This document shows, piece by piece, positions 9,878 through 39,500 of a stretch of 64,000 nt of DNA. The translations under genes and the position numbers were made by a program. The DNA is from Lingula anatina (lineage: Eukaryota; Animalia; Brachiopoda): assembly GCA_051362555.1 (NCBI GenBank), contig CM120648.1, positions 8,800,587-8,864,586 of the forward strand, written 5' to 3'. Positions within the stretch are counted from its first letter, which is position 1. Each line of letters starts with the position of its first letter. The notes beneath the pieces were generated by a model, which had not been told where the DNA came from, did no database searches, and worked only from the letters and a program-made list of their open reading frames with translations.

Positions 9878-12088
9878 ATGGCAGGAAGCGATCCCTTGAA
9901 ATATGCCAATGAATTAGAATCGGTACTGAACCTTCTGAAAAATGATGCAGACTTGCGTGAAATGTTTAAGGTAAATGTGCTAAATAGTTTTGATCAGTAT
10001 TATCAACATGACAGCTTAATTGCCCCCCCCCCCCCCCCCCCTTAATTTGCATCTCTTATTCATGTAATGGTAGTACTAATATTTGAAATATTTTTTTATT
10101 GGGATATTGGGATTTTCATTTTGCTTTATTTGACAAAAGACCTAATCTAAAAATGCCCTTTTATATTAATTTTGTATATATTTGCAGGAGGGAGAGGTCT
10201 CTCAAGCCTTCAAGGAAATAGCCAGAGATCCATCAGCCATACCAAAATATCAGGAAAATGTCAAAATTCAAAAGCTTCTGAAAATGATGGGAGATAAAAT
10301 TCAGGGGTTTGCCACATCGGTTGTAGCTGAAAGTGACGCTTCTGCAACCACAGCCTCAGCTCAAGGTGACACTGTGGAGGTAATCACTCTTTTTTAGGTT
10401 GTTACTAAGTAAATTTGTGTCAGCAATAAATATTTTGTCATTATAAAGTCTCCTTAACAAACATGCTCCACATTCATCTTCTTGCACTGTAAACAGTACT
10501 GAGATTCATACACAAAATTCAGAAACTTACTGTTGTTAAAGGTACATGTATACTCCACATGTATGAAAATCACCCATGAAAGTCATTTATTCTTATGGGT
10601 GCATTCCCAGAGATTTAGATTGATCTAGAGATTTAGATTTAGATCCGCCTAACTCCCTGGGGGTTCTCGCTAAATTGCAGTCAGCCGTGCGCACACCATA
10701 GTTAATTACCCCCTTACAGCTTTAAGTAGGCGGGACAGACGCTTAAGCCAGCTAAGCTGACAGTAATCTAGTGAGACTCCCCACAGGGATAGAGCGATCT
10801 AAAATCTGTGGGAATGGGGTCTATGTCTTCACATATCCTGCAAAGCTACTACTCTTTCCCAATTCAGACCCTTTAAAACTATAAAACCCTAAAATAAAAG
10901 TAACTGACATCAGCAGTTCTCTCTGAAATGTACAAGAAGACTCAGTGCACTGAATGACTGGCCAGTCATTTACAAGTAATCGATCATTAAATTTAAATGG
11001 AATAAAACAACGAATCTAAGGGTAGGGGTGGGTCGAGCAATGATCTTTAGAATGAGAATTTTTTTCCTGAAGGAAATTCTTTTTGATGGGTGATGCAAAC
11101 AGTACCTTTGAATTAATCATAGTTACAGTTACTAGTGCATGCGAAAAAAGCGCAATGAGTACTGGTAATTTCTTAACTGCACGTAAGACATTCATAGTAT
11201 CAGTTTTTAGATAGTCTATGTTTTTAAAAAGAAAACCTTATTTTACAGTCATCAGAGGAATTAGCAATGGATGGAGAAAGCACAGATCTATTTGATGAAG
11301 ATGCTGCAGTGCAGCCTTTAGTGGGAGTAGATGTATTAGAACAGGTAAGGAAGATAAAAAAGTACAAGTTGAAGATTGCAATACCTCAGAAGACAAATTG
11401 GCACATTTCACATAATATCAGTATTTGCAAGTAACTGAAATCAATTAATGTGAAAAAGCTCATTCTACTGAAAAAATGAATATATTGGACCAAAGGTCAT
11501 GTCAGTGGTGCAAAAATTTTGTGTAATATTTTCATAATTGTTACATTTATCTTCTTCATTACTGTGTAGCATTAAACCGCAAAAATACTGGGGCGAGTCA
11601 AAATTATGCAACATGATACAAGATATTTACCACTGATTTGACTTAAATGTTCCCTTACAGACTTTTCTGTGAAATGACTCTAAAAATGAAATAATTGAAA
11701 TCTGTGAGTAATCTCTTTATATATAGTTAGGTTGCAAATCTGATTCTTTCTTTTAATACCTACTAAGAATTGGTGATATTTTCTAACTCTAGATACTACG
11801 TGCCAAGAAAGGGGACCCCAGCAAGTTTCAGAGTCACTGGGAGCAAGATGAAGAAGACATTGATTTTGCCACAGATGAGGAAATAAAAAGTGAGATACAA
11901 GAATTGCCAAATGTTTACCCTATAATATTCTGTCCTGCAGATGTTTTCATGCATTTAGTTTATTTAATTTTATTTTTATTTAGTTCATTTGATTTTTATT
12001 TATTGTCATTTGGAAAGTCAAATCAGCTTGGTTTCTGCTTGAAGAAATTTGATTACTTGTCATCAAGCATATTAAATGCTCTACTTAC

Positions 12089-12122
<34 letters not shown>

Positions 12123-12913
12123 GAAAGACAATCCAGTTCAGAGAATTCTGTGGGCTGCAGAGAATGGCGAAGTGGACATTGTGACTGAACTCTTACAGAA
12201 AGATGCATCCTTGATTCAAGCTGTAGATAAGGATGGCTATACACCTTTGCACAGAGCAGCCTACAATGGAGAGATGGACATTGTCAAGGTTAGATACCTA
12301 AAATTATACGTTAATGGCACTAAAGGGGTATCTTTATATTATAAAGGCCTAAATTTGTCAAAAATAGCTATTTTCATTGTTTCTTTTATGTGAACTACTT
12401 ATCTAATATTATTGCAGTATACATAAACATTTTTAGAGTACTCCATTTTTTGTTCCTTTATTCACCATCCCACTCTTTTCTGCACATACGTTCAGGTGAA
12501 AATCAAATTCTCTGGTATTCTCTGTTTTGTACATTGGGGCTATTCTAAGAGAGAATTAAAAAAAAAAAACATTTCAGATATTGCTGTCCCAGGGAGCAGA
12601 CGTCAATGCCCAAACCAAAGATGGCTGGCAACCAATACACAGCGCAGCGAGATGGAACCAGGTTGAGGTTGTCTCTCTCCTACTCCAAAATGGCGGCAAT
12701 ATCAATGCTCAAACAAATGGCGGTCAGACACCTCTGATGTTGGCAGCGTCAAACAGGGAAGGGAAAGAGACCACAGAGTTTTTGCTCATGAATCGTTACG
12801 TCGACCCACATTTGATGAACAATATTGGAGAGACAGCATACACATTGTGTCAGAGATACACTGGATTTTACTATCTATTTGATATTGTTCACCCGAGTAT
12901 AAACAGTTTTTGA
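9878..12913 (+). CDS. ANKRD49: Ankyrin repeat protein 49-like with N-terminal STI1/DP domain, ~324 aa; exons 9878-9970, 10188-10379, 11249-11344, 11793-11889, 12128-12288, 12578-12913
   Basis: All introns GT-AG with consistent phases (0,0,0,1,0); C-terminal part LWAAE...DGYTPLHRAAY...DGWQPIHSAARWN...TPLMLAA...LLMNRYV...YYLFDIV matches ANKRD49. Confidence 0.88.
10597..10821 (+). mobile_element. PIF/Harbinger-like MITE, copy 2 (ANKRD49 intron)
   Basis: GGGTGCATTCCCAGAG ... CTGTGGGAATGGGGTC, 3-bp TSD TAT; colinear with copy 1. Confidence 0.85.
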
Positions 12914-16407: not shown

Positions 16408-18299
16408 ATGGCGACCTCAATTTTCTCAACCATTCCTTTGTTGTTTTGTGCGGCGATCATCAGTTCTTCGACAGCATTCCGTCTTGACAGACTAGCATCT
16501 TTACGTCTACCTGTAAAAGAATCCATTGGTAAGTTTTTGTCATTTTTGTAGTTTTTCATCTCAGACTAAAAAACGGGCATTTGCCATGCATACAGTGCCG
16601 ACAGTATATAAGACAGTCCCGGACATGAATATTTCTGTTATCACAAATAATATAATATAATATATCCATAACTGTACAAGGTAATACCAAGAGAAACTTT
16701 CTTAAAGACTTAAGCATACTAGTGCGACTTTTGAGCAAGTATTCATAATTTACATGTATATATTCTTGTGCACTTCATGTAACAACAGTAACCAATATAC
16801 CACCTGCAACATGCTTATTTAAAGGAGAATTATAGAACTGTTTTATAAAACAGTATGCAGTGTGTGTGACACAACCTCAAGGTCGCTTCATCTGCATAAA
16901 CTCTTTCCATAATTACGTAACTCGATCATGGTTCCTTTTTCTAACTTCAGCGATACCGCTACCGTCGCCATCATGCCCAGCTGGACAAGTCCAAGAACAG
17001 ACGTCCTATCTTCATTACCCACAGCAAACCTACAGCACCGTATTCTGTAACTCGGTGGCCGCAAATGCTCAAAACGAATGCGGTTATCACTGCAAGAAAG
17101 TGTGTAGAGATAACCATGGAGCGTCTGCTACTGTGGCCAGTGTTACCCTGAACGCGTGCGTTCCGAGTAGTTCTGTGCCAGGATTTTCTTCCGGAACTCT
17201 TGTGAAGATGGATGTTTGCTGTTCTCCTCCACCGCCGCCATCTTGCCCAAGCGGACAGGTGCCAGAACAGACGTCCTACCTTCATTACCCACAACAAACC
17301 CACAGCATAGCATTCTGTAACTCGGTGGCCGCTGATGCCCAAAACGAATGTGGTTTTCACTGCAAGAAAGTATGTAGAGATAACCATGGAGCGTCTGCTA
17401 CTGTTGCCAGTGTTACCCTGAACGCGTGCGTTCCGAGTAGTTCTGTGCCAGGATTTTCTTCCGGAACTCTTGTGAAGATGGATGTTTGCTGTTCTCCACC
17501 GCCGCCATCTTGCCCAAGCGGACAGGTGCCAGAACAGACTTCTTACCTTCATTACCCACAACAAACCCACACCACGGCATTCTGTAACTCGGTGGCCGCA
17601 GATGCACAAAATGAATGTGGTTTTCACTGCAAGAAAGTGTGTAGAGATAACCACGGAGCGTCTGCTACTGTGGCCAGTGTAACTTTGAATGCTTGCGTCC
17701 CAGGAAACTCTGTGCCAGGATTTTCTTCCGGAACTCTTGTGAAGATGGATGTTTGCTGTTCTCCACCACCACCGCCATCTTGCCCAAGCGGACAGGTGCC
17801 AGAACAGACGCCTTACCTTCATTACCCACAACAAACCCACAGCACGGCATTCTGTAACTCGGTGGCCGCAGATGCTCAAAACGAATGTGGTTTTCACTGC
17901 AAGAAAGTGTGTAGAGATAACCATGGAGCGTCTGCTGCTGTGGCCAGTGTTACTTTGAACGCGTGCGTTCCGAGTAATTCTGTTCCAGGATTTCCTACCG
18001 GAACTCTTGTGAAGATGGATGTTTGCTGTTTGCCACCAACTTGCCCAGCTGGACAAGTCCAAGAACAGACGCCTTACCTTCATTATCCACAACAAACCCA
18101 CAGCACGGCATTCTGTAACTCGGTGGCCGCAGATGCACAAAATGAATGTGGTTTTCACTGCAAGAAAGTGTGTAGAGATAACCATGGAGCGTCTGCTACT
18201 GTTGCCAGTGTTACTTTGAACGCGTGCGTTCCGAGTAATTCTGTGCCAGGATTTTCTACCGGAACTCTTGTGAAGATGGACGTTTGTTGTAACCCTTAA
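16408..18299 (+). CDS. Secreted cysteine-rich tandem-repeat protein, ~489 aa (exons 16408-16528, 16951-18299): signal peptide plus five 83-aa 8-Cys modules with Pro-rich linkers
   Basis: Hydrophobic leader MATSIFSTIPLLFCAAIISSSTA; phase-1 GTAAGT..ctaacttcag intron joins it in frame to the long ORF; modules start at 16974, 17244, 17511, 17781, 18042. Confidence 0.85.
16974..18290 (+). repeat. Coding tandem repeat, 5 units of 261-270 bp
   Basis: Near-identical units; periods 270, 267, 270, 261 bp. Confidence 0.97.
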
Positions 18300-19754: not shown

Positions 19755-19825
19755 GCGCCGCTGGTGTAGTGGTATCATGCAAGATTCCCATTCTTGCGAC
19801 CCGGGTTCGATTCCCGGGCGGCGCA
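19755..19825 (+). tRNA. tRNA-Gly (CCC), copy 1
   Basis: GCGCCGCTGGTGTAGTGGTATCATGCAAGATTCCCATTCTTGCGACCCGGGTTCGATTCCCGGGCGGCGCA; canonical cloverleaf, A/B boxes, T-run terminator. Confidence 0.97.
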
Positions 19826-20073
19826 TACTTTTTTAGTTAAACTTTTCTTGATATGTTTTACTCACCTTAATAGTTTCATAGTTAAGTTTATAATATTATC
19901 TTTAGCACTGATCGCCAAAGATTCCTGTCCCCTGTCCACTGGAATTATAATTATGTAAGATTTTTACTTTTGCGACACACATTCTATTCCCTGGAAAACC
20001 TTACAAATTGTAGTCTATTTCATATTTGACTGCAATTTCCATGAATTCGAAATCGAACAACAGAAGAATAACA

Positions 20074-20144
20074 GCGCCGCTGGTGTAGTGGTATCATGCA
20101 AGATTCCCATTCTTGCGACCCGGGTTCGATTCCCGGGCGGCGCA
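20074..20144 (+). tRNA. tRNA-Gly (CCC), copy 2
   Basis: Identical 71-nt sequence. Confidence 0.97.
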
Positions 20145-20402
20145 TAAATTGTAGTTAAATTTATATGTAAATCACTTTTTCATATTTATTAAACTAGTAA
20201 AACTTATGCGTTACTCACCTTTATAAAATTATCTTTATCACTGATCGCGAAGGATGCCCCTGGTTCACTGGTTTGGTGAAAGATATTTATATTTGCAATA
20301 TGCATTCCATTCCCTGGAAAGCCTTTTAAATGTTTCTTTATAAATTCTATATATTTTATATATTTGTTAACAATTTCCATGATTACGTAAGTCCGATATA
20401 AG

Positions 20403-20473
20403 GCGCCGCTGGTGTAGTGGTATCATGCAAGATTCCCATTCTTGCGACCCGGGTTCGATTCCCGGGCGGCGCA
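20403..20473 (+). tRNA. tRNA-Gly (CCC), copy 3
   Basis: Identical 71-nt sequence. Confidence 0.97.
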
Positions 20474-20715
20474 TAAATTGTAGTTAAACTTTTATGTAAA
20501 TCACTTTTTCATATTTATTAAACTATTAAAACGTATGCGTTACTCACCTTTATAAAATTATCTTTATCACTGATCGCGAAGGATTCCCCTGGTTCACTGG
20601 TTTGGTGAAAGATATTTATATTTGCAATACGCATTCCATTCCCTGGAAAGACTTTTAAATTCTATATATTTTATATTTGTTAACAATTTCCATGATTACG
20701 TAGGTGCGATATAAG

Positions 20716-20786
20716 GCGCCGCTGGTGTAGTGGTATCATGCAAGATTCCCATTCTTGCGACCCGGGTTCGATTCCCGGGCGGCGCA
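20716..20786 (+). tRNA. tRNA-Gly (CCC), copy 4
   Basis: Identical 71-nt sequence followed by a T6 terminator. Confidence 0.97.
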
Positions 20787-20944
20787 CATGTTTTTCTGAT
20801 ATTTTCTCAACTGTTTTATGTCGAGTTTATCTTAAATGCTGTCACGTAAATTTGATAAACAATGCGTCTGTATGTGTGTGCGTGAGCGGCTCACAGCTAT
20901 ACGAAAAATAATGAACAGAAAGCAATGCTTTAGGTACAAAATAT

Positions 20945-20950: not shown

Positions 20951-22272
20951 TAAACCATTATGAGTGAAACGATGAATTCAACACGCAAGTTAACATATAC
21001 AGTGCGCGTATCAAGCAACACACATGGGTATGGGTATTACAAGTAAACCGTATGGATAAAACATTAATTATCGTAAGAGAATTTGCCAGCACATATGGCA
21101 TGCGTGTACGGATTCTAAATGAAACTGCCCTGTCTGTACATCCATTACGTACAAATTCCAGCACAGATGTGTCATTAAAATCGCGAAAATAACGGTCTCT
21201 AAAAGCAGTATTTTACTTCAAGGAAAAAATATTCTTTAAAATAAGGCAAGCTGTATGTAACATTTTACCACACAACGGAGTTTAGATAACATTGTACAGG
21301 GGAATAGAGAGTTTTTTTTCAAAAGTTTTTCATCAAGCATACAGATACAGTGTAGCAAAATATGACGTATACGATTACAATGTGTTAATGTACAAAATAA
21401 GTAAACATATCAATACATTCATCATTTTTTGACATAATAACAGTATTTCATTCACATGATGTTATACTAGTTTAAATAAATATCATTTTACTGTGCAATT
21501 ACTTCATGAGGAATATTTCATATTCTGTATCTCAATATACAAAAACTAAGTAGACTATTACCGTCATTAGCTATTCAAGTGCATCTTAATACTTAAGTTT
21601 TGAGTAACACATTACCTTGTTAGCTATATAGTTTATATCTATATGGTATCGTACAAAAAGTGGTTGCCATTGTCACTAGCGAGGGGCCCCACTTTACACA
21701 TTGCGTTAGGTGAGAAATAAGCACAACTAATCTCGGCAACAAGTGCCAAACAATAAAAGAGCTGACATTTTTATAGGAAATTGCAATATTACGGCTCTAG
21801 CATATTTTAAATTCGTCTTATGGGGGCGCATATCAGGGACCAATTCTCAGCTGCCATTACATGTCAAGATGTTTGAGATAACCACTAATGATTCAGCCCA
21901 TTCCATACAGTCAAACACTCCTTTAAATGATTCCTTTACAGTATTTGCAAGACTATTACAAATTCGTCATATGCAATGTGGTAATTCTAGCCCCCACTCC
22001 CCCAGGCCTATACTATTATTCAGCATAATGTACCACTTATTCTTATCTTCACAAGAGTTGTATATATTTTACACCTATGCCAGTGACAATCCATTCATGA
22101 TGCACAATATGCAAAAGAAAAAAATTAAACAGTGAACATTTAGCTACAAACAGCACCAAGGAGTTTTACCTGATAAACCTATATCATGATTTTAACATAT
22201 AATTTACATATATTAACTTTTATGTTGACATCAAGGTACTGGTTTAGAGTTTGTTCATTTTAAAGTATCAAT

Positions 22273-22446
22273 GGGGGCGTCTCGATAGTCCGAAGGTTCA
22301 TTGGTCCGAAGGTTCATTGGTCCGAAAAGTGGTAACATTTTCATCGATTTTTTAATCAAGGGTTCATTGGTCCGAAGGTTCTATAGTGAATATTCGGACC
22401 AATGAACCTTCGGACTATTGAACCTTCGGACTATTGCTACGGCCCC
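22273..22446. mobile_element. Foldback-type MITE built of 15-bp TCCGAAGGTTCATTGG-like units, 8-bp TSD
   Basis: GGGGGCGT...ACGGCCCC termini; internal units inverted in the right half; TSD GTATCAAT at 22265-22272 and 22447-22454. Confidence 0.85.
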
Positions 22447-23611
22447 GTATCAATTACAGAAAAGGATTCAAGTTATCTACTTTTGTGATTTTTTGAGGGA
22501 ATTCGAGTAATTCTCTCATGTAAATCAAAAGTTTTAAATCTCCAGGTTTTTACTTGAAAATTAAAGAACCTTGTGGGACAATTGATCAGTGAAGAATAAC
22601 TTGATCTGAAGACAAAATATGTTGGCAAACCGTCTTTTGTCAAAATATGCCTAAGTAGTTTTAATTTCTTAACTGGGGTTTGTAAAGCAAAAATCCACTA
22701 CAATATGCTCCATTCTAATCACAATGTAGTAGTACCAATACTTACAAATTGGGTTACTTATACAGCAATATATATCTCAAACTGCTTTGTGTCCCAATTT
22801 TTGACATGGAGAGACCCCAATCTCCCCCCCCCTCAAATATTGGCATGCAAAAAGGTTCTTGGGAAACTTGAAAATTACACAGATTTTCAATTATGCATTA
22901 ATGTATATATTTGCACATTAAATCTGTCCAGTCATTGAGCATATGATCACGTCAGTCAGAACACTTTTGGCATTTTAAAATTTATAACACGACACGTACC
23001 GAGGAACGGAAAAAGCAAAGTTTTTACACTCTAAAAGGCTTATAGTATGTACACTGCTGTGATAAGTTGTTATATGTGTCTTACAGCTCTCAATATGCTA
23101 AAACAATTATTCCTTAAAAAAATTGCATGGTTATCCCTAGATACATATTGACTTCATGCGTTGTGTGTAAAAAGGTATTTCAAAATTAATACTTCATATT
23201 GGTGGGATAACACAATGCTAGAGCCTCAGTTCTGTTAGGTGAGATGGTATGGCAGGATGCCATTGCATTAAAAATAGATTGCCTTACAGACAAACGTACA
23301 TACATGAACTATTAAATGCTGTCATTTATACACAATGACCAATGAGATGTTTGTACCACAACAGCATGCTGTAATTGTGTACAGTAAAATGCAGTCACTT
23401 TTGGCAGAGAAATTTCCAAATGTTTAATAAGACGTGTAGGAATTAGGTTACAAAACTGGGAATGTGGGCCATATAATATTGAATGCTGCTTATCATCACC
23501 CTGGAGTGGAGAAAAAAAAAACGATGCTGTTACATGGTACTGGCCATCCAAACTGGGTTAAATTCGTTACATAAATGCACATATATACATATAATATTAA
23601 CTGAATTTACA

Positions 23612-23760
23612 CTATGTTTTGCAAAATTTTATAGAACTTCGTCCTTTCCGGTGGTCAACTAAATGTAACTCTTCTTTGTCCAGTGTTACGTATTGGATAC
23701 AGCCCTGGAAACCTTTATAGTATGCTCTTGGAAGGCCATCTGGGGGCATGCGTTTGCCGC
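23612..23760 (-). CDS. AGRN: Agrin last coding exon (LG3 end [22 protein letters not shown]...FCKT*)
   Basis: ttccag acceptor, phase 1, LamG C-terminal GCI motif. Confidence 0.92.
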
Positions 23761-25624
23761 CTGGAAAAAAGTTCAATATCAATTACACTTCTTCATACTT
23801 GTCTTTAACATTTCATATTGGTAATTAAATACAAAGCCTGCAACCAGCATTTCCCTGGGGGGAGTTTTTTTTTTTTATCTGGAAAAGTGGATCTTATTTC
23901 CTTTGAATTGTCACAACTTGAGAAATGGCTGGCATATAGCCTTGATAGAATTTGAATTCAGAGCAGTCTTATTTCGGAAAAAAAGGCAGTACTTTCAAAC
24001 CCTCCAAACCTGATCACTGAATTACATGGCATACTGACCTATCCACAGCTGACCATCAGTGTCCAGTTGAGTTGCCCCTTGCCTCGACACCTTGGTTATC
24101 GGCCGATTTCCGTCAACCGTTAACACTCCTTTCCTCTTGTCCCTAGTGTAACAAAAATAAGTTTCACCAAAGCTAGGTAATTTAAAGAATGTTTAAAATG
24201 ACAAAAGACAGATTAACAAATTAAGAATTATAAATTAAGAAGACAGATTAAAATGACAGATTAACACCCCCTCCTTTGCAGGCACCCTGCTGTGATGTAA
24301 TAATCTCCAGTAATCTGACTACGTATACTCCTCTACCACAATATAACATTTACCTGTAAAAAAGAGCAGACAGTTGCTCCTAAAAAGTCCAGATAAAAGA
24401 AATTCCTATGCAGAATGATCTGCTTTTTATTTCCGGGTATAAACATATTGCTGAACATGTTATAAATTGAATAAAACCTGGACGCAGTTAGTAGAAATCA
24501 CAACCTCTAAGCTCAATTGCTCTAGTTTAGATTATGTTACAAAATGAGGAGTCTACTGGAGTGAATAAATAAATAAATAAACAAAATCTTTATGTCTGAT
24601 ACAAATAAATTGTACTATGTAAATGAAATTAATGAAAGCTTTGTGCCAGTAATTGTTGCTGAATGAGCAAATTGCAAGCCTTGAAAAAATTACTGATTTA
24701 AAATAGTACATCGATGGAACTTTAAAATACTATACTCAGGCACCAATACTCAGACACCTTCATTATTGGAACAAAAAAATAATAATAATAAAAAATAGGA
24801 AATAAAAATAAAAAAATGGCACTTATATCTGAAAATTTGTAGAATACTCAAAAACTTAATACAATTGAGAATAATTTGCAGTTAAGAAAACAGTAAGTTA
24901 CCTCTCAGCTATTATTGTATGCCAGTCGCCATCATCTACTCGCACTGCAGATCTTATTTTATGGATGTCAGTGGGTGATTGTTTTCCTAGATTGTAGCTA
25001 AACTCTACGTGACCATTCACTATAGCTAGGGCCAGGTAATCTCCTCTAATGGTAGGACTTTTGTGAACTATTAAAACAAGGCCGTTCTTTTCCGTCGTTC
25101 TAAGTCGGATAAGGTATCTATTTTGCCTTTGACTGCGTTGTCTGAAAAAAATTGAAAAGCAAATCAAAATTAAGTGTAATTTTTTACATTTTTTAAATGA
25201 AAAATTTTAAAACTTGGTTCAATTATGGCTATCACACTTAAATTTCAGTGACACCACTAATAAAAAAAAAAATTAATATTCATCCTTTCAGGCTGATCAC
25301 TTGAACAATTCTAGATGGTAACCAAACTCTCTTTCCTTAACCTGAAAAATTATTTTTCAGGAATCTCCAACTGCAAATTATTTTGCAAAATACTTATTTA
25401 GTATTACTTGTCTATAAATGTAGTAAGAAATTGCCATACCAACAAGTTTAAAAATCCAAATAATTAAAATAACATATAAGTTAAAGGTTTCAAACAAAAT
25501 TTTAAAATAATTCCAATGACAATAAAATGCACATTTGGAAAGCTGTATATTATGTACTCTTATAATGATTAGTCCTTTTTTTAAAGTTCCACATAATGCT
25601 TTTTCTCAATACAAAACAAAGCTA

Positions 25625-25663
<39 letters not shown>

Positions 25664-28610
25664 TTATTATTATTATAATTATTATTATTTCTTGCACATT
25701 AAATAACTATATTCTATTAGTGTGTTTGTGAAAAAAATCTGTGAACTGCAATAAAAAACTGTGACCAATCCTGTGATGAAATATTTAGGCCCTAAACTAG
25801 AATGACTCTGCTAAAACTGCTTTAAAACTAAAGGAATGAAGTAGACAGTTTTCATGAATCTGCAGCAAAACCAAACTAATACCTCCAACCAGTATATTTC
25901 ATTGAGTAAAAGTCATCTTCTTCCTCGAGTTGGTTTTAAAACAGTTTTAAGTGACCCGTTGGTGGATGGGGCCTTAATCATTAGGTGAAATGGGGTGAAA
26001 TAAGTATTTATAGTACAGACAAAAAACTCTTTCATCACCCTCCAACAGTTAATTTGAAATATATCAAGAGTAGTCTACATAACTGTGTTGTCTTAACAGT
26101 TTTCAAACTTCTACATTTTTTTCACATTTGAATTCTAAATAATAAGAGAAACATTAACACTATCAACCCAATGTGAACAGTTCCTCTAAATGTGATGAAT
26201 CAAGTCTCTGAACACAAAGATGTGGCATTAAATAGTATTGAAAGAACAAAATGAGAAGAACAAAATGAATAATGTGTAAAACCATGGAGTACCTACTAAA
26301 CACAACTTCAAGGTTGCAAGACTTAGTGATATACAGCAGTATACTACTATTGAGTGAAGGTATTATAGAAGTGTTCAAGAAATTGTCACAATACAGATGA
26401 AAATAAAAATACTGATAAAATCACATTCCACCTTCTGAAACTTTCAAGGCAGATGAAAAAGTGCCATATTGCTAAAATAAGAGAACAAAGTGTTTTCTTT
26501 GACATCATGTTCTCTTGTTCTAAAAAGTGAATATTACTAGAGAGAAGGCAGATTTGACTAAATCTGGGTTTAAAGCAGAACAAAATTTTCTTCACAAATC
26601 AATTCTTTACACAATTTCACAGTATTTAAATAATATTAAAAACATATCAAGGCCAACGTAGAGAAAGTTTTCAAACATCTCTATTTTTCTATTTTACTCT
26701 TTTTACAATTTATCATCTCAAACATTTACAACAACAACTGTCTATTCAAAACTTCAGCATTCTTTGGTAGAAAATACTAACAAAACATGTCTGAAGGGGG
26801 GGGGGCAATCATCACACTTAAAGTCAGCTTTAAAATATCTGCCTTCTCACACACAAAAAAAGAATAGAATGCCAAATACTAAAACAAAAGAAATAACAGG
26901 CATCTTCAGGAAATAATACTCAGTTATCAGAGACCCGTTTACCTGCGAGCCAACTCCACTAACAGCTTTCCTAATGTTTTAACATCCATTCCTTCCATTA
27001 CTGCCCAGCTGGATAAACATACGTGGTAATAAGGTGACATGCATTTTACATGCAAGTGTTACATTAAGCTTTCAGAAATATCCCCCTTTGATGGAAATCC
27101 ACACGCTTATTTTTGTGTCAAAATTTTTAAAGGGGTAAGAACTCTTCTTATTGGCCATAAAAATGCCTTAAAAAGATTTTCCTGTGGTAAACGACAATGT
27201 TTCCATTACTTAATAATAGGTAACGAACTAGTTCCAACATTCAAAGTTAATCAATTGTGCTTTTTGTAATTATCTATTTTAAAAGAGATTTTTATAGAGG
27301 GTATCAAACTATAAAGGCTCATGTGGTCCAATGTCACACACAGATTTCAGAATAATTAATATATTGCAATAAATGCTGCTTCATTGGTAAAATGGACTTC
27401 TCTGTGCTGTTTACAATGTATTTATTGTGGAATTTTGAATCTCAAATGAAAAGTTGTTATCCCTTCCAACAAATTTCAAGTGTTTTTGCCTTATATAGTT
27501 CATATATGCCCATAAAGCACTGTTAGACCCTTCTCACAGTGTGCTGTGTGTTGTTTTCTGACATATAATTTGCTCCAATTTGACAGAATGTCAACCTGAT
27601 AGCCTGGATTTTAATTCAACCTTTACAAATTTTATTTTTATATAATTATTCATGAATACCAGGACATTTCTTATTTCAATGGATGACATCTGTGGATTTC
27701 ATCAAAATATTGGGGATATATCACTGAAGTAAAAACAAAAATACCATGCTGTAAGATTAAAAACAAACACCTTTTTCAATTTCTGTAAATAATAATAAAA
27801 AAAAAAAAAAAAAAAAATCACTTGACATAAAATATGTCAATATGCATATTATTTTCACCCAATTATTTAACACGTTTTGTTAATTTATTGTTAAATAACT
27901 CAAACCAAACCTTATCTAAATTAGTGAAAAATCAAACATGTGAAAATGTCTCAAAATAAAAATAGTGCTAAAAAAGAAAAGAAATCTTGGGAAAAAAATT
28001 CTACACATACATCGCTGTCTTGTCTAGGGTCTTGTTCTTGAGTGGGCTGCAGAATCAAACATTTGAGGCTTGTTAGAAGTATAATGCACACTCTAAATCA
28101 CAACCAAACACAATGAAGAGAAGTCTCAACTAATGCATTCATAGCACATAGAAAATATCATTCTACAGCAAATATATTCTCTATACAGCAGCTGTTTGCT
28201 ACACAGTTTCAATACACACACCTACGTGCTGTATATTACACTAATCACAAAAAGATACATATTTTTCTAATTAAATCTGAGATCAATCAGTTATTAACAA
28301 AATTAACAAATATACAGCAGATCATGTTTTGAAGATAAAAAAAAGAGTGATCTTAAAAGTAAAATTGCTCATTATTCTAATGAACATAAAAAAAACAGAG
28401 ATTTGTGCATAGAACTGAAAATGGTGGTTTTTATTTCATTCCCTCTAAATACATGCCAATCAATAAAATCTATGTGCAACTTAAAACCTCACAGCCTTTA
28501 TTTGTCACCCATGGTGTAACAGATAAAAAGAGTGATATAATAATAATAATAATAATAATGAAAACTGCCATAACCTTTGTATTGAGTGCATTTCAAGGTC
28601 CACACATTTT

Positions 28611-28688
<78 letters not shown>

Positions 28689-28999
28689 CCCTATATACAG
28701 AACATGTGGAGTGTAGCATTAAAATTTCTTTTATAATAACTATGGTGGATGCAGTGTGCTCACTGGTAAGAATATGAACCAAAAACTCAGATTATCCTCA
28801 AACCAGCATGCATCTATGATAAAGGTTTCTTCTTCCCATTAATAATTATGTAAAAGGTAAAGAAATGCATACTTACTTCCTCACAGCTTGGTTATCATAC
28901 TGTAGAAAAGTTGACCCGTCAAATTGAACGGGACTGTTTTTGTCGATGTCAGTTTCTGAAAATGAAAATGAAATGAACTGAAATTATGGGTGTTATCAA

Positions 29000-29030
<31 letters not shown>

Positions 29031-32000
29031 TCAATCAGGGAATATACAGACCACGTGAATATCAATACTGGAATCTATCAAAAATCAAATCAAAATATTA
29101 TGAAAGCATATTCATGTACCAATATTAAACCACATACTAAATATCATTTTAGGAATTAAAAGAATTAATATGAAAATTCAACTTAAACTCATAATTAGTA
29201 AAACCATCAAAACAAAACAAGGCATTATCACTATATATTACTATAATATACCTCTCTGACAATGTTCCCCAGTATATCCTATTCTACATTTACACTCGTA
29301 TTCCGCTAATTTTGGCTTACAATAGCCGCCATTTTGACAAGGGTTGCTGGTACAGGGTGGCCCCTGATATATACCCATATGTTCATTGGCTACTGCACCA
29401 GCCAGTAAATTATCATACATGCGCCCATTTATGTACAGCTGAAAGTATATACAATTGACCCCATTTACATTTCACAAGAAAGTTGAATATGTGATAGCAA
29501 CTTTAAAAGTAGCAAACTGACTTTCTTCAGTGCTTATGACAATTAATTGTAACATCATATTTTATCTAAAAAAGGATTTGATTCTGAACATAGTTTACTT
29601 TGAATATCAATTCTTATACATAACTCGGTATAAACTGAGGGTTCCATCAGCAGCAATATTAAATTCCTGCTTCAAAATATTTTTAAAATAAAAAATAAAT
29701 TTACTTACTCTCTGTATAGCACCATGGAAACCGGACTTAATACCGGAGTCTGGGTTGATAGAGCTTTTGTCTTTAAAACCACCTATATAAAGCGGCTGTC
29801 CAAGATTAAGATCTTTCAAAGTTCCCTAGTGAATTATGAAAAAAAAGTAGGTTGTATATAAAAACTAAGAATGAACATGATCAATGTGTTTTCTCTGAAG
29901 TAAAAGCATCACACACACACACAAACACACACAGATACATTGTACAATCTCTTCTTCTTCTCTCTCTCTCTCTTCACCAGTGTTCTTCCAAAAATTCTTG
30001 AGAGAAACCTACACAGAAATCAACCTGTTAAGCAAAAACTTGTAAGCACAGTGCATACATGTATATGCCTACTATCACACTTAGTTTCCAATTTTACTTA
30101 ATGGCAAAGTTTAAATTCATCCTTACCTTGGATTGCCCTGACTGACTGACAGAGGTGCCATTTATAATCATGTTGCCTTGACGATTTCTCCTCTCAACCG
30201 TCACTCTGTGCCACACATTCAGAGCAATGCGTTTGGGTGATCTGAAATTATTATAGTAGCTCCATATGAATAAGATATGAATTTGGTGGTATGAATTTGC
30301 CCCAATAGGTGGCACCCCAGAGCATGCTAAGAAGTGCAGATGAAAAACATAAATGAATATTTTGGGCTCTGTCTTCCAATTTTGTACACATACTTGTCCT
30401 GGCTTATCCATAAGTAAAGATGCTACATAATGAACTGAAAACAATTATGATTTTTAAGACACAGTAATCTGATCTACATATAATCTTCACATAAAAATGT
30501 GTATCAAATTGCTAATTTTTTATATAACATTGTCTGAGAAAATAAAAGAATAATTTTCTTATACAACCCCAAAATTCTTAAAATCACATTATATTTAAGA
30601 GGAAAAAAATTCAAACTTACTTTATATAGGCAGGGCCTCCACCAAGATCAAACTTGAATTCCAGGAAGCCATTTTTAAGGTTTAAAGAAATGAAGTCCCC
30701 TTTCCCATTAGCTCTCTGGCCACAGTATAAGATCATGCCTAGCAAGATGATAAGGACACATTTCTACCATACTACTTATAAGTAAGTTTTTCAAAGTTTT
30801 TTTATTTTAAATGTCTGAAATTCTGAATTGAATCAATTAAATTCATTTATCCAATCTAGATATTGAGACAGTTTATCGGCATATTAAAAACTGCAGATAC
30901 ATTTCAATATAATTAACAGATAAGGAAAGAAAAGGTTAATAAAAAAAAATGTTTATGATTTGTATGTTTAAATTCAAAGTATGAGAAAAGGAAAGATGAA
31001 GGACAAGGTAGTCAGAGCAGAGGGAGGGTAAAAGAAGAGCCATCATACCATTTCCTTTGGTGGGTAAAAACCAGACTTCAAAGGCTATTGCCCTAAGGAC
31101 ATTGTCATTGAATTCCCTTTCTATGTAAGAATTTCCATTGAATTCAGGGATAGTATAGAGTGGCAAGGTCGTTGGTGATACAAGTACTGAAAAAATATAT
31201 ATACACTTCAAATGATACAACTTTTAATGAGGAACATATAAAATTAGTCAATTTTAACACCCAAGTTTGATATATCAACAGAAAATGTAGAAATACTATA
31301 TAACACTGTCAAAAAGTTGCATACTCTGAGATTTTAAAAAATTTATAAAATGAAATGTGCTCAATGGCAAGTTTTAAAGTACTGATAAAAACTTCTAATT
31401 TCTGAACAATAATATTAAACTAGTCTGAAAAAACAAACAAGTTTAATCAAATTAGATTAGTTTAAACACACAAGCACTTTCATGCTCCCAGCTAGGAAAC
31501 CAGACCATTTCAAAATTATGTCACAAAGAACTATTTTTAACCATATGACCTACAATTTTCACAATACTGGCCACTCCTCCCACTGGGACAGTTGCATTTG
31601 ACCTCATTATCTGACACCACCTGACAGGTGGAGCCACCTTCACAGGGGTTTGAAGAGCACGGGTCCCTCCCCTCTGCACACTGTGGGCCTGGTGAAAAAA
31701 TTACAAATAATAACAAAAATAAGTTTAAAATGTTGAATTTGGAATCACAACCAATATACTAGTAAACATTTACTGAAAGGTGATTAAATAATGCGATTTT
31801 TGTAAGTATACATTAAATTGGTAGCACATAGAATAGAAGGAAGCAGTCAAATGAAATTTATTTGACAGACATGCTGTGTGTGCTCACGCTTGATTGGAAT
31901 CAAACATTTGAAGTGGTATCCTTGTATTATATAAACAGAAAATACAATGATGTTTCAGAAGTTACAGATGTACTGGTACTGCTAAGGTGGAGATTTCTTT

Positions 32001-33207
32001 ATATTATCAATAACAACAATATAATTAACTGACAATATCAAAATTTACCCATATTCACAGAATAATCTATTTTTCAATCCAAAATGAACATGAAAAAAAA
32101 AACTTAAAAACACAGAAAAGCAGTAGGCCAAATGGCATAAAACCATATAAAATTTTTCAATTTTTTTAACCAAAATTAAATTTTTTTCATTAAAAAATAA
32201 ATCGATTAAATATCTCACCTTTAAACCCTGGTCGGCAAACACACAGGAAGTTTTCTTCATCGCGGAAGTAACACGAGCCACCATTTTGGCATGGAAGACT
32301 TCTGCAAGGATTGTCCCTGCATTCACCTTCAATATAAAATCAGCATATTTTTTACTGATTTCATAATTCAGAAATAGATATCCTTAGTTTATTTCACCAC
32401 CATCAACATCACTCAAGTGCACATTTTACATATTTTTAATAATTAATACTACTCTCTGGTTCCTAATTGCCATCTGGTTTTGAATAGTAGTACAGGGTAG
32501 AAAAATGCTCAAAATCTAATAATAGTATGGTCCCGTAAAAACATACAGGGTTGAAATTTGACCAATAAAGAACCAGAAATCTATCACGTGATGTGAGTGC
32601 GACTGGATGTGATTGCGTATATGCCTTGAAATGCACTGTTGTCACAATCTACAGTAAACACAGGGTGCCGCCATATTGAATTTCTCTTGAGTGTTAAAAT
32701 GGGTCAACACACGTATGTGGTGCATGAACAGGTCTGGGGAAACTGGGATTTTTAATAAGCGTACAGTCTCGAATATGGCTGTACAGTGTGGAATATTGTG
32801 ACAAATAAATACCCGTACATGTACAGCAATTAGGAACCAGAGAGTATACAGCTAATAACCACCATGGGGTGGCTTTCGGGAATGCAAAATTCCCCGAAAG
32901 CCAACTTAACAATTCCATGGTACAGTCAACTTACCAATTCCATGGTGAGACACAATATCGCCCGATTGTGGCAAGTCCAGCGTGTACGCTCGGGTAGTGA
33001 TTGAATTGCCATCTGATTTAGATACTGTTAAAGCAAACACACAGCCAACTAGGCCATGGCCTGTGCCAATCTCTGTCACCACACTGGAAAGTTATGAGCA
33101 TAGCATTAGCATTAATAAATTAACATATCATTAGCATGTCATTAACATCTCTTTAATTTAGCTTTCAATTTAATTTCGAACATGCTTATTTTTAGTTTCA
33201 TTATTAC

Positions 33208-33249
<42 letters not shown>

Positions 33250-33568
33250 CTGTTAAAATGATTCCCACTTAAGGTCAAGACTTTTAGAAAATCGGGCAAA
33301 GTTCAAAATTGAATTAATCTTACTCATTGGTCATGTCTGGAATCCCACCAACATAGAGTGGCTGGTCAAGGTTCAGTGACCGCAGATTCCCCTGTGAACT
33401 GCCCAGGACCTCCTCTCCATTGTCCACTTGTAGCGCCCCCTGGCTACCAGATCTGTTGACCATCACATGATGTTGTTTGTTGAGTTGGATGGGCTTGGTA
33501 CTTCTTATCAGAGCTGGGCCACTGCCAAGGTCATACCTAGAAAACAAAAAAGGAAATGAAAAAGTTGC

Positions 33569-33599
<31 letters not shown>

Positions 33600-36500
33600 G
33601 TAATAATAAATTACAGTGTCCTCTTTGGAACATATACTAAGATAATGGATGCAACTAAAAAGGACTGCATATATTTTAAATTAGGTATGAAATATTAATA
33701 TAATGCTCAATTTAATATTAATTATAAACAATTCTCAGCCCATGGTTTTTATACAGTTATAAATCAATTTTATCCTTCACAATTCCTCACCTATACTCTA
33801 CATAACCATTGACAATAGCCAGAGAAATGAAGTCCCCTCGCCCCTCCACAAACTGGCTATTGTACAGCAATATGCCATCCTTATTGTGGGTCTTAAAGGT
33901 AATCTCTATCCTATTAAATTTATCCACACCGGTAAGCATTCTAAACTGAAGCCAAGACTGATTGCTGAATGAAGGGGTGCTGATGCCTGATGGATTGGCT
34001 GAAAAAAAGGGCAAAATAATTTGGTGTTGGTGTGACAGATAAAATGTAACGTATTCGACAATACCATCTGAAGACTGCCGCAATTTGTTTAACCTATGCT
34101 TCCACAACTTAAAAGTTTATTTAAGTATGTCAAAATACAAGATGCCTAAAATGTAATGAATGTGATTGTATGTTAGATGTGACAATGTGTTAGGTGTGAC
34201 AACAGTTTTGTCAGAAATTGTTTCATTGATCAAAGAAAAATAAACCTCAAAATAAAATTTTTAATTGAAAAAAAAAAATAAATAAATAAAAAAATCAAAC
34301 AACTGAAGCATTGGAATTGTGAATGATTCCCGTACCTATGCACAGACTGTTGAATTCAGAAGGAATGAAATCTTGGTCACATACACAGAAGCTGCGTTCG
34401 CAGTGACTGTGGGCAACAGAACACTCTTCGTCAGTTTGGCACACATCCCCTATCCTACCTGTAATATAGATTTTCTCTTGAATTAATTGAACATAATCTA
34501 TATTTGGGCCATTCCACAAAAAAGTTACTCTGAGTCATGCTAGTGATGTACATATTTGGTGTGACATTTGCATGTTTCACATCACTTTTAAAATACTGTT
34601 TTTACATTGGAGGGCACTATAGTTTAAATTGGCACAAATAATGAGTTAATCAAAAATCATATATAAACTGTGAACATCACTGACATGACTCAAAAATTTT
34701 GTTCCTTTTTTGACATGAAATAAATCAATTTTTCATAATTCATATTTGTCCTTTTTTTGGTCAAGAAATAAAGTTAAAAGCATCCCAAACAAAAAGCTTG
34801 AGTTTTAAAGATTACTCAGAATCACATGTAACTTCTATTATCAGCAAGCGTCAACAATGTTGATATTACTTTCCAGTAACTTCTCAATTTTAGTTTGTCA
34901 ATGCAAAGACGTATACATCAACTGCTTTATCAAATCCGAATTGTTCAGCATAATATATCTTTACCAGTCACTGTCCCCATATCCATTATGTAGCTGTAGA
35001 ATATTCATTCAAATCTCCAATTTATATATTCTCATTAGACAATTTCTAGGGCATTTAAAATATTTGACAACTTGCAAGCAAATGAAAAGCTGGACTATAT
35101 GATGCTGAGTTTGTAAAAACCATCTGTAATCCATTGATAGTCTTCAGTCCTTCAATCAATATGATTTCTGTATATTTTCTGTAGTGGATTAATTAGGATA
35201 AAAAACAATTCATTCAAATTTAAATGTCTATAAAACTATTTAAAATATCAATTTAAGACTTATTATTTGTATTATTCATAAAATGAACTGCGGAGCTAGA
35301 GTACATCATTCTATTCTTTTATTTAAATTATGATACTAATATGTTAGTTACTTAAAATATATTATATCACCTATAACTATCATATATATATATGGATATT
35401 TAGCTATTGTAATTATCATATCTGTGTAACTTCCCCATTATCTTTCTAAAATAATCTTTCTAATATTTCTACCACTACAGAACATAATATAGTAGTATAC
35501 TGTATGTGATAGATACAATACGAGTCGCCGAGCTGTACGTGAAATATAACGAGTGTATTGGCCAGCCAAAGGCGAGACAATACAAGAGTAATTTTCACGT
35601 ACAGCTCGGCGACGAGTGTTGTATCTGGCTTAAACCACGGCCTTTGATTGGCTACTACACTAGTGAGTAATGGGAGTGCAACAGACCGTGGAACGCACTC
35701 GTACATGACGTGCTTGTATGTCAAATACAGCATGGCTGCGTCTTTTGTTCTATGCGCTAGCCGTGGTTTAAATATTGGTGTTAGCATCTTGAAAAGTTAG
35801 AATATTACAGTAGTTACGTTGTTATTTTGACTACTTATTATTCTATGTTCATATATATATTGGAGTACAGTTACAACCCTTAATAATATTATGTACTATC
35901 ATGTAGATATATATATATAAATGTTAGACATTATTTATTTTAAGATCAGGTATGCAGCAAAGGATAATTTTTTAACAGGGATCACTCAAGCTGATTTGTT
36001 ACTTCTTGTAAGCCTGTTAGATTTTTATAATTATATAGATCTAACAGCAAATTTGGGCTCTGATAGCCTTTCATTACACTTTGTGCAGTGACAGTAATAT
36101 ATATTAGATATCAAAGATATATCATTTCAATTAAAAAATTTAGACAATCAACAACTGTAGAACAGACATAAATTTAAGTGATCAACCACTTAATTCATAC
36201 TAAAATATTTAGTAAATAAAAAAATCGTGTGAACTTAAAAGTAACAGTTAATGTAAATTTTTTACCCACAAAATTAAGACATTTCAAAACAGTTTCTAAT
36301 AATTAAAAAAAATGGTTTCCTTTATCATGGTCATTTCACCTGCACCCAAACATAACAAAGTCATGCAATGTTACTGTATCTTTGTTTGCGTGCATGCACA
36401 TGTGTGTTTGCATGTACATTCAAGTATGTGTGCATGCATGTTACGATATATGCACAAGCATATAAAACATAATAAGCATCACCATGCAATGTTATTTATA

Positions 36501-39500
36501 TAAGCATATTCATGCAGTCAGCGATTAAATGGCCGTTGGTTGTGGGGAAAAAATTTGGGGAAGGGTTCTGTGACAAAAACATGAACTTTACTTTAATATT
36601 TCAAAAATCAAGGAAGTAGATAAATTCTGTGGCATGTTCCACATATTTCCTCTCACCCATCAAAAAAAATAAAATAAAAAAGTAAATAAATAAAAAAGAC
36701 CAGAAAATGTCATCTTTTTGGCACAGAAAGTTTATTTCACAGCAAGATGTATATGTGAGCATGTGTGCAAAGCGCGTGTACCCGTATGGAAATGCATGCA
36801 TGTCTTCTGAGGGAGGGGGGGGGGTAAAGGTGGGAGAGGGGTCGAAGATTTCTTACATCACCAACAGATTTGTTTACAACAAACAAAAGTACATACCGTA
36901 AAAAGGTTGATCTGACAATGAACCGCCTACAATGCAATTACATCATGTTCTTTTGATAACTTGAAAATCAGACATATATATCTAGCAATCAGTGAGAGGA
37001 AGCTGAGATGTACTCTAAAATCATGAAATTTAAGTATGTTCAGACATATTTGGCAAAAAACAGAGAAACATGGCGATTTTTCATACACTTTAGTAACCTT
37101 AGTTATTCCTATATTATTTTTTTGTTTTAATCTAAAAAGTTATAGCCAATAATGGTGTATTAATACACATATAATAAATTCATCGATAAATTTGAATCAT
37201 AAATTATTTTCCCCTCAAGTATGAAAATGTAGTTTTTTAAAGTAAGGAATTTTAATCTCATAATATGTGCCAAAATGTCTGAAGCAAAAAAATCTCATGA
37301 TTAAAAGAGCAAACATTTAAAAAATGATTTTTCTAAAGCATACATCCAAATCAAAACACATAAATCAATCAGTGTGTCAATCTTGCAGTAAATTGTGGCA
37401 ATGCAATGTTAATGTGACAATTAATGAAAAAAGTGACATAGATTAATGGCAACAAGAAATGCCAAATAGGAAATTGAAATCTTCTTAGCAAGTGAAAAAA
37501 AAAGCTGATGTGTAACTATATTGACAACAGAAAAAAATCTAACTTGAATTTATTGATAGGTGGATCATGAAGGGTAAAAACTAGCAGGTGATCAAATTTG
37601 CTAGACAGTCTTAGCTTGGACAATAACCTCTTACTGACTGTGAATGTTACATGTAAAGGCTATCGCCAGTCTAAAACTCTCTGTTAAGACTAAAATGTGA
37701 TTTTAAAAAATGCAACAACTTTAGAAGCTTCTGACCAAGAGCTTTATTTCTTAAACAAGAAATAATTCATCAAGATTAAATGACTAAGTCAAACTTACCA
37801 AATTTCTGGTCTTCTTCTTCTTCAGGTGGTTTTTGTGTTGGTTCAGGCGGACTAGAATCAGCAAGATGGCGTGTGGTTTTTCTTGAAGAGCCATTTGGTG
37901 GGGGACCAGTTGTGCTGCTCTCTAGTGGTGAAATACCTATTTATAAACATACCGTGTATATATATATGTTATGATTTTTACATGATGTATTTATGACATT
38001 ACATCCTTCAATTTAGTAAAGAAAAGCTTCTAAGACAGCCACTAGAACCAATTTTGATTACATCTTTATCCCACTAGTTTAAAAGATACCTGCTTACTTC
38101 TCTTCTGTTTGTTCAAGGGACATCTTATTTTGTATGTAAAGATTAGAAGTACACTAAAAAACAGTGCATGGAGTAATTACACATCTTGGCTTTCTTGATC
38201 CTAAATGCGCACTGAAAATGTACACATGTAGCACACTGCTTACTTCTGCCCCAATTAGAGTAAAATGCAGGGGTGGTTTGAAGCCATCTTCTGGAAGATG
38301 GTCAGAATTTTTCAAGGTTACACTGCTGGGCATCTAATTTTTCTGTTGGAAGACAGTCAAAAATTGAGGATGGATCAAAAAGGACTATTGGGAAGACTGT
38401 CAGAAAATATCTCTAGATACACCCCTGCATTGGACTGCTCACCAAGTTGGAGAAATCTTTCATCATTTATGGAAAACTTAAATTTCCAACTTCAAAGGCC
38501 TACCTGCACAACTTCCTTTCTTCACAATTCTAATTTCTTTCTGCTCTCGACATTGGAACTCTCTCAGCGTACACTCATCAGGGTATTGTCTGCCATCAGA
38601 GCCACAAACTTTACCAGGTGTTGCGCCTGTACAATCCATTTTACACCTACATTCTGCTTGTCCATCTACAACTTCACAGGTGGCACTAAAGTTGCAAGAC
38701 AAGCTCTCACAGCTAGCTGAGAAGAAAAGAATGACATAATTCATACAGACTGAGTGAATGTAAAAATGTGACTGTACCTTTGTGTTTTATTTGGGGGGGG
38801 GGGGGGGGGGTTCTAAATTATATGCACTTTATCAAAATGTACCTAATTACTAGTGTGGTATGTTTTTTACGAGTGGGTTCTGAAAGCTCAAGTCAAAAAG
38901 TCATTAAATAAACAATTTGGGAAGTTTTTAAGGAGCTCCTTCTCAGGGATGCATGGGGAATATCTTTATAAAAGTTAATCTGGAATATCTTTATAAAAAT
39001 TAAATCAGATTAACATGCCTTTTCTTGTTTCTAACGAACTCATATAATCACCAGCTTTTTTGCATTCTATTCAATGCCAAAAGTAGGTGTATTAATCTGT
39101 AAATCTGATATTGTGATCCCAGTTCGTCCCCCCTGGAGTTTGTTTCAACTACTTAGTATGATCGTTTCACTGTGAATGGACCCTTAGAGCATGCTTACTT
39201 GGACCAGGTGTGTCACATCCATTAGGTCCTGGAGGTTTGCCTGAAAGACACCTGTCGCACTTGTCACCCGTCACCCCGCCAGGAATTTGCTTACATAAAC
39301 AGCGTCCCTTTGTCTGCTCACAGTCATCCCGCTCCGTCCCATACCGATTACAGTTGCATGCTGGGAAAGGAAAAGATTTATTTATATAGTGTTTTTACGA
39401 CATACCCTAATAGTTTTCTGTTATTGTTGCATGTTGAGAAATGCACATGGCAGTGTTTTGTTAATGGCAAGCTACAGTACAAATCCAAAGCAAAATTAAT

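Follow-up and report, generated by a model that had tools for sequence, protein, structure and literature searches.

Inserts at the z site of agrin affect dystroglycan binding, and sclerostin uses an NxI motif on LRP5/6. In vertebrates, the NxI motif of the z8 insert docks in the first propeller of LRP4, and the z loop adjoins the calcium site of LG3, according to PMC6966886. A sequence-only reading of the locus considered here had invoked an NxI/V mechanism for z8–LRP4 and Dkk1–LRP6, in agreement with that text. In Ciona, the Z6 and Z5 exons were missing from the annotation before cloning, and the cloned Z exons were linked to Nova, Lrp4 and receptor clustering (PMC12445529), serving there as the test case for a z exon outside the vertebrates. 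The same paper describes agrin Z exons as a chordate-specific innovation, on the basis of nematode and sea urchin genes, and the z motif has been reported to be missing in the invertebrates examined (PMC2874008). An Lrp4 orthologue has been reported in Tribolium and Drosophila (PMC5831798). A search of the open-access literature yielded no paper on lophotrochozoan z-site splicing and none treating LRP4 together with Lingula; no YWTD-rich protein was present among 388 collected proteins.

The window (the whole stretch of DNA analysed, 64,000 nucleotides) carries the 3' part of an agrin gene of Lingula anatina on its minus strand. The RefSeq agrin protein maps to 27 coding blocks in the window, each with >80% identity (tblastn and splice fit). 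This protein contains NtA, Kazal/follistatin repeats, laminin EGF and three LG domains with EGF spacers (Pfam scan), and the top match in a search of solved structures was agrin 8s9p. The RefSeq Lingula agrin-like isoforms X1-X7 (XP_013410175.1, XP_023932249.1-254.1) come from the same gene. The features at the z site are listed below.

28877..28955, minus strand: constitutive exon preceding the z site and opening LG3 (...YDNQAVR + AA), from tblastn/splice fit to RefSeq proteins and read joints at 28955 and 28877.
25142..28876, minus strand: z-site intron, 3735 nt, phase 2, GT-AG, from the skip joint 25141-28877 (47 reads of runs X3, X7 and X8).
28226..28240, minus strand: candidate 15-nt cassette (N-V-I-Y-S-T), from sequence only; no listed read joint, 0/9 Lingula proteins.
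28011..28046, minus strand: spliced 36-nt alternative exon, +12 residues, N-K-T sequon, without NxI/V, from read joints on both sides and 6/9 Lingula proteins.
26943..27008, minus strand: in-frame 66-nt cassette free of stop codons, whose splice sites score highest in the z intron (16.4); it serves as a control and has no listed joint.
24902..25141, minus strand: constitutive exon that follows the z site and encodes the LG3 core, matching Lingula anatina agrin with 100% identity across 80 aa and covered by reads.

The intron at 28876-25142 is the z intron of agrin LG3, and it is alternatively spliced. The gene, domain and site had been assigned in this way from the sequence, and all three were borne out by homology, by alignment column and by alternative splicing in the reads. 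In a homologue alignment, the bird z8, z11 and z19 inserts share the column of the Lingula intron, and the amphioxus z intron (S2 Fig, PMC12445529) has the same phase. Vertebrate z8, z11 and z19 (PMC6966886) and the Lingula cassettes, of which the 15-nt one is a candidate, have in common the LG3 loop, the intron and their nature as optional in-frame cassettes; Ciona Z6/Z5 and the amphioxus Z exon (PMC12445529) likewise share with them a small size and the same intron. The constitutive NxI/V noted before the z site in that paper corresponds to N-Q-A in Lingula. An LG3 model based on 60 sequences, informative only about the position of the loop, put the z site in a loop that lies between two predicted strands, follows strand 659-662 and is modelled with low confidence, the pLDDT being 56-62 for the z insert versus 82-98 for the adjoining residues; it was retained in preference to a single-sequence fold (pLDDT 33), which was set aside. 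A 25-residue query against solved structures matched nothing relevant. Two further observations concern this intron. An element of about 60 nt at 27398-27465 draws many reads, in both directions and with unrelated flanks, and is therefore taken to be a multi-copy repeat present in other transcripts. The 66-nt cassette (27008-26943, minus strand) has two TGCATG motifs just upstream (27054 and 27043).

Seven of nine available same-species RNA runs without tissue labels were used (all except runs X5 and X6), six of which had coverage at the site (run X4 gave 0 reads); depth ranged from 13 to 254 reads per run, 6-30% of each run was read, and joints were listed when at least three reads carried them. 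The skip joint was carried by 47 reads (0 in run X2, 2 in X3, 27 in X7 and 18 in X8), and run X9 had four loose ends of the skip form. The joint from the 36-nt exon (28046-28011) to the downstream exon was carried by 7 reads in X2, 0 in X3, 3 in X7, 0 in X8 and a further 2 in X9, and its upstream joint by 5 reads in X2 and 6 in X7. The 36-nt exon was the sole form listed in X2 (7 vs 0) and was absent from X8 (0 vs 18), a difference with a Fisher p of 2e-6 on raw read counts, in which mates are not independent. Genotype as well as tissue may be the source of such differences between samples. This exon, which lies 179 nt downstream of the 15-nt segment and was absent from the sequence-only reading, is already known, being included in RefSeq models: isoforms X1-X4 and X7 contain it and X5 and X6 skip it, with isoform names that do not label the insert as a z-site event. 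Overall, six of the nine public Lingula proteins carry the insert and three have the skip form. In run X1, three reads continue past 25141, and their consensus opens on the final 6 letters of the 36-nt exon; the rest of this consensus (agreement 0.76) matches nothing in 22000-35000 and could be a chimera, an allele or an exon missing from the assembly.

The most probable interpretation, in our view, is that the z intron is spliced via the 36-nt exon, which contributes 12 residues without NxI, and that the 15-nt segment is a product of chance that is spliced hardly or not at all. A match to the branch-point sequence CTAAC lies at -30 of the 36-nt exon, which encodes one N-K-T sequon and no NxI/V. 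Its alternative splicing would give LG3 a z loop longer by 12 residues that lack the NxI motif, and the insert is predicted to add an N-glycosylation sequon and three lysines beside the calcium-binding edge of LG3. Because of this glycan sequon and these basic residues, partner binding might be altered, the insert tuning binding to surface partners such as dystroglycan or an LRP-family propeller through charge and bulk rather than through NxI docking. The z loop would then be a tolerant insertion point at which many bilaterian lineages have their own optional inserts, with the use of NxI docking possibly representing a chordate specialisation.

The 15-nt segment was as described from the sequence: it is AG/GT-bounded and in frame, it lies in the z intron, and N-V-I forms across the junction. 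On the minus strand, 28240-28226 reads TGTAATATACAGCAC, flanked by ttag and gtaggt. The upstream exon ends at 28877 with the first two letters, AA, of a split codon. When the exons are joined in silico, skipping gives ...AVR-K-QRS, and the form with the 15-nt segment reads ...AVR-NVIYST-QRS, with Lys replaced by Asn-Val-Ile-Tyr-Ser-Thr. If spliced, the segment would place N-V-I in the z loop, a motif not beyond chance expectation. With splice-score matrices built from 25 introns of the same agrin gene, its donor scored 9.2 (the 25 true donors range from 1.2 to 9.9) and its acceptor -2.8, below 24 of the 25 true acceptors, and it ranked sixth within the z intron. The 66-nt cassette at 26943..27008 has far better sites than the 15-nt segment, and none of its joints was listed either. 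Neural microexons typically have weak 3' sites, and those of the eMIC type are characterised by a UGC close to the 3' site, long AG-free zones and a strong branch point (PMC8797185). The eMIC-type features present at the 15-nt segment are a weak 3' site and a CTGAT at -50; the nearest upstream TGC is at -79 and the AG-free zone is 24 nt long. YCAY occurs once in 179 nt and twice in 300 nt downstream of the cassettes, both values being under the shuffle mean. There is no YCAY cluster just downstream of either Lingula cassette, whereas the Ciona exons were tied to Nova (PMC12445529), and the z intron as a whole displays a mild excess of YCAY (60 vs 45, p 0.011, single-base shuffle).

The frequency at which comparable sequences arise was estimated from the same gene. 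Its other introns (28.7 kb) contain 27 stop-free cassettes with a summed score at least equal to that of the candidate, four of them with NxI/V, corresponding to 0.52 equal-or-better NxI/V cassettes per z-intron-sized intron. A cruder filter identified two other NxI/V cassettes in the window, or about 0.12 per intron of this size. Depending on the yardstick, the chance of at least one such NxI/V pseudo-exon in an intron this size is about 11-41%. When both splice scores had to be matched at once, no independent intronic rival was found in 32.5 kb, the joint threshold being set by the 15-nt candidate itself and also passed by a 3-nt cassette sharing its donor. NxI/V arises in 11.5% of random stop-free 15-mers at this split codon; the motif is cheap at the z site, where any exon beginning with C or T completes the split AA as an Asn codon.

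The 15-nt exon was found in none of the joints or between-exon letters listed for the six RNA runs with coverage, in none of the RefSeq isoforms X1-X7 and in 0/9 public Lingula agrin proteins. In total, 55 reads pass from the upstream donor to another exon (47 by skipping, 8 by joining the 36-nt exon directly), giving for an inclusion of 0/55 a 95% upper bound of 5%, or of 11% assuming two reads under the three-read floor; three further X2 reads at the upstream joint do not tell which letters lie between. The designation of 28226..28240 as an exon was not confirmed by the listed joints and between-exon letters or by the nine proteins, and its motif is not beyond chance. A neuron-only exon could escape listing, because the runs have no tissue label, depth is low and the floor is three reads. 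Several findings count against the chance reading: the donor is strong, a weak 3' site is usual for neural microexons, the listed differences spare the 15 nt, and a second exon becomes more plausible beforehand in view of the two-insert layouts of vertebrates, Ciona, Littorina and Babylonia. We consider it rather doubtful that the 15-nt exon is real.

The reads of runs X7, X8 and X9 depart from the window at roughly 5% of the letters of that exon, a higher rate than in X2 and X3; this difference suggests that they come from a separate lineage carrying the same species name. For the unspliced reads of these divergent animals, 13 differences are listed across the 241 nt of the downstream span. 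At the 15-nt donor, +5 is changed from G to T (5/5 X8 reads, 2 starts), lowering the donor score from 9.2 to 4.5; acceptor positions -4, -5 and -12 are also changed, with the AG kept. None of the differences listed falls within the 15 nt themselves, as against five among the 26 letters on either side (p 0.09). In the 36-nt exon, 5 of 36 letters are changed, at both ends, and the N-K-T-L-D-K-T-A core is intact. These observations bear on a reading in which certain cells do splice the 15-nt exon but its N-V-I is incidental, as a lineage-specific insert affecting loop length, like the paired inserts of snails. The strong donor and the lack of listed change within the 15 nt favour such an exon, as do the paired alternative inserts with unconserved sequences in Littorina and Babylonia, whereas the splice-signal changes in related animals and the lack of listed reads and models argue against it; we regard it as unlikely.

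The segment had also been proposed to be a functional z8 equivalent. In the fullest form of this idea, the 15-nt exon would be real and neuron-restricted, with an N-V-I that docks in an LRP4-type propeller, and would be followed by a z11-like 36-nt exon, in an arrangement inherited from the ancestor shared with chordates. The intron and phase match those of chordate z exons, and the order, a short NxI exon followed by a longer one without NxI, is that of mouse and Ciona. The Lingula 12-residue insert also has a short resemblance to vertebrate z11: its T-L-D-x-x-A-[IL] stretch (T-L-D-x-x-A-I) resembles mouse z11 with a shuffle p of 0.006, a resemblance chosen post hoc from about two dozen inserts and considered a lead only. 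One of the alternative inserts of Littorina, with seven residues, carries N-T-I. The Lrp4 orthologues of Tribolium and Drosophila (PMC5831798) and the cryptic nature of the Ciona Z exons (PMC12445529) also fit. Against this, the reading has no listed reads and faces a chance rate of 11-41%, the donor is altered in related animals, and the T-L-D stretch is found in neither the amphioxus nor the Ciona inserts. The Asn of the 15-nt form would lie nearer the strand, 5 residues past the conserved Y-x-N position, versus 7-9 in chordate inserts. NxI/V is present in only three of 23 inserts surveyed, and is lacking in those of Babylonia and Pomacea. Furthermore, unlike vertebrate z8, the demonstrably spliced exon of Lingula is without NxI, and the NxI candidate is putative and 5 residues long, with an Asn derived from the junction codon. 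The proposal of a functional equivalent is not supported, given the absence of listed reads and models, the cheapness of the motif, the Asn at 5 rather than 7-9 residues and a used exon without the motif. That the 15-nt exon works as a z8 equivalent is improbable, as is the ancestral arrangement with a z11-like partner. It is similarly a long shot that the brachiopod keeps a two-exon z cassette, composed of a neuron-only NxI microexon and a z11-like exon, such that the agrin–LRP4 switch would predate the protostome–deuterostome split and survive in lophotrochozoans. If the 15-nt exon were real and bound LRP4, a key synapse switch would date to the bilaterian ancestor.

The isoform survey of other animals covered up to 15 isoforms per cluster in 20 clusters, plus representatives, and was based on protein models only, with no genomic exons. 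Isoforms with and without an insert at the loop used in Lingula were found in Littorina, Babylonia, the scorpion Centruroides and the insects Neocloeon, Bemisia and Onthophagus (RefSeq). Among the isoforms listed, each of the two snails has two alternative z inserts, of 7 and 10 residues in Littorina and of 7 and 9 residues in Babylonia; aligned, the 7-residue inserts have N-T-I in Littorina versus L-V-S in Babylonia. Pomacea has one model with a z insert and one without, and the Babylonia and Pomacea inserts contain no NxI/V. The snail, scorpion and insect inserts are unrelated in sequence and range from 7 to about 55 residues. In a hand-picked set of non-chordate or unnamed z inserts, NxI/V was present in 3/23 and an N-x-S/T sequon in 15/23. 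No z insert was found among the listed isoforms of bivalves, cephalopods, chiton, Gigantopelta, Lineus, Penaeus and Varroa. A search of 50% clusters returned amphioxus and other inserts, and no listed match resembled the 15-nt peptide; a transcript-fragment search for other z inserts gave 3 matches among 139 candidates, the one short fragment examined not spanning the site.

Given the optional same-loop exons in the brachiopod reads and in the snail, scorpion and insect isoform sets, z-site splicing extends more widely than the chordates. Splicing at the agrin z site is not chordate-specific, and its occurrence in protostomes conflicts with the chordate-specific reading of PMC12445529. As a place of regulated insertion, the z site either dates from an early ancestor or arose several times, and it may be the NxI docking motif that is chordate-specific. 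The protostome z-site inserts, including the 36-nt exon, could also be tolerated splicing variation without selected function, consistent with the wide differences in insert sequence and length among lineages and with the lack of an insert in the listed isoforms of bivalves, cephalopods, chiton, Lineus, Penaeus and Varroa. However, samples switch from all-included to all-skipped, the 36-nt exon is in frame with a core unchanged in divergent animals, and sequons recur; we consider a complete lack of selected function quite unlikely.

Other observations were made in the gene and the window. A 12-nt in-frame cassette encoding V-D-F-C (30024-30013, minus strand; acceptor 8.2, donor 5.7, TGC at -10) has good splice scores and sits in a 301-nt intron at the agrin y site, beyond the stretches covered by the RNA reads; it is carried by 0/9 Lingula proteins. 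In vertebrates, the y exon likewise measures 12 nt (K-S-R-K), but the Lingula V-D-F-C is hydrophobic, unlike y; other inserts at the y site were found in Tubulanus, amphioxus and one further protein. The RefSeq isoforms also differ by a 4-residue alternative segment at residues 232-235 (outside the window) and a 10-residue alternative segment at 1059-1068 (between window positions 37797 and 34459). On the plus strand, a small gene with ankyrin repeats has exons at about 11793-12913, and a 487-codon open frame at 16836-18299 consists of five 270-nt copies, 91% alike, the repeat unit being cysteine-rich with proline linkers and having marginal Pfam matches only. Finally, four tRNA-Gly(CCC) genes with a spacing of about 320 nt are located at 19755-20787, also on the plus strand.
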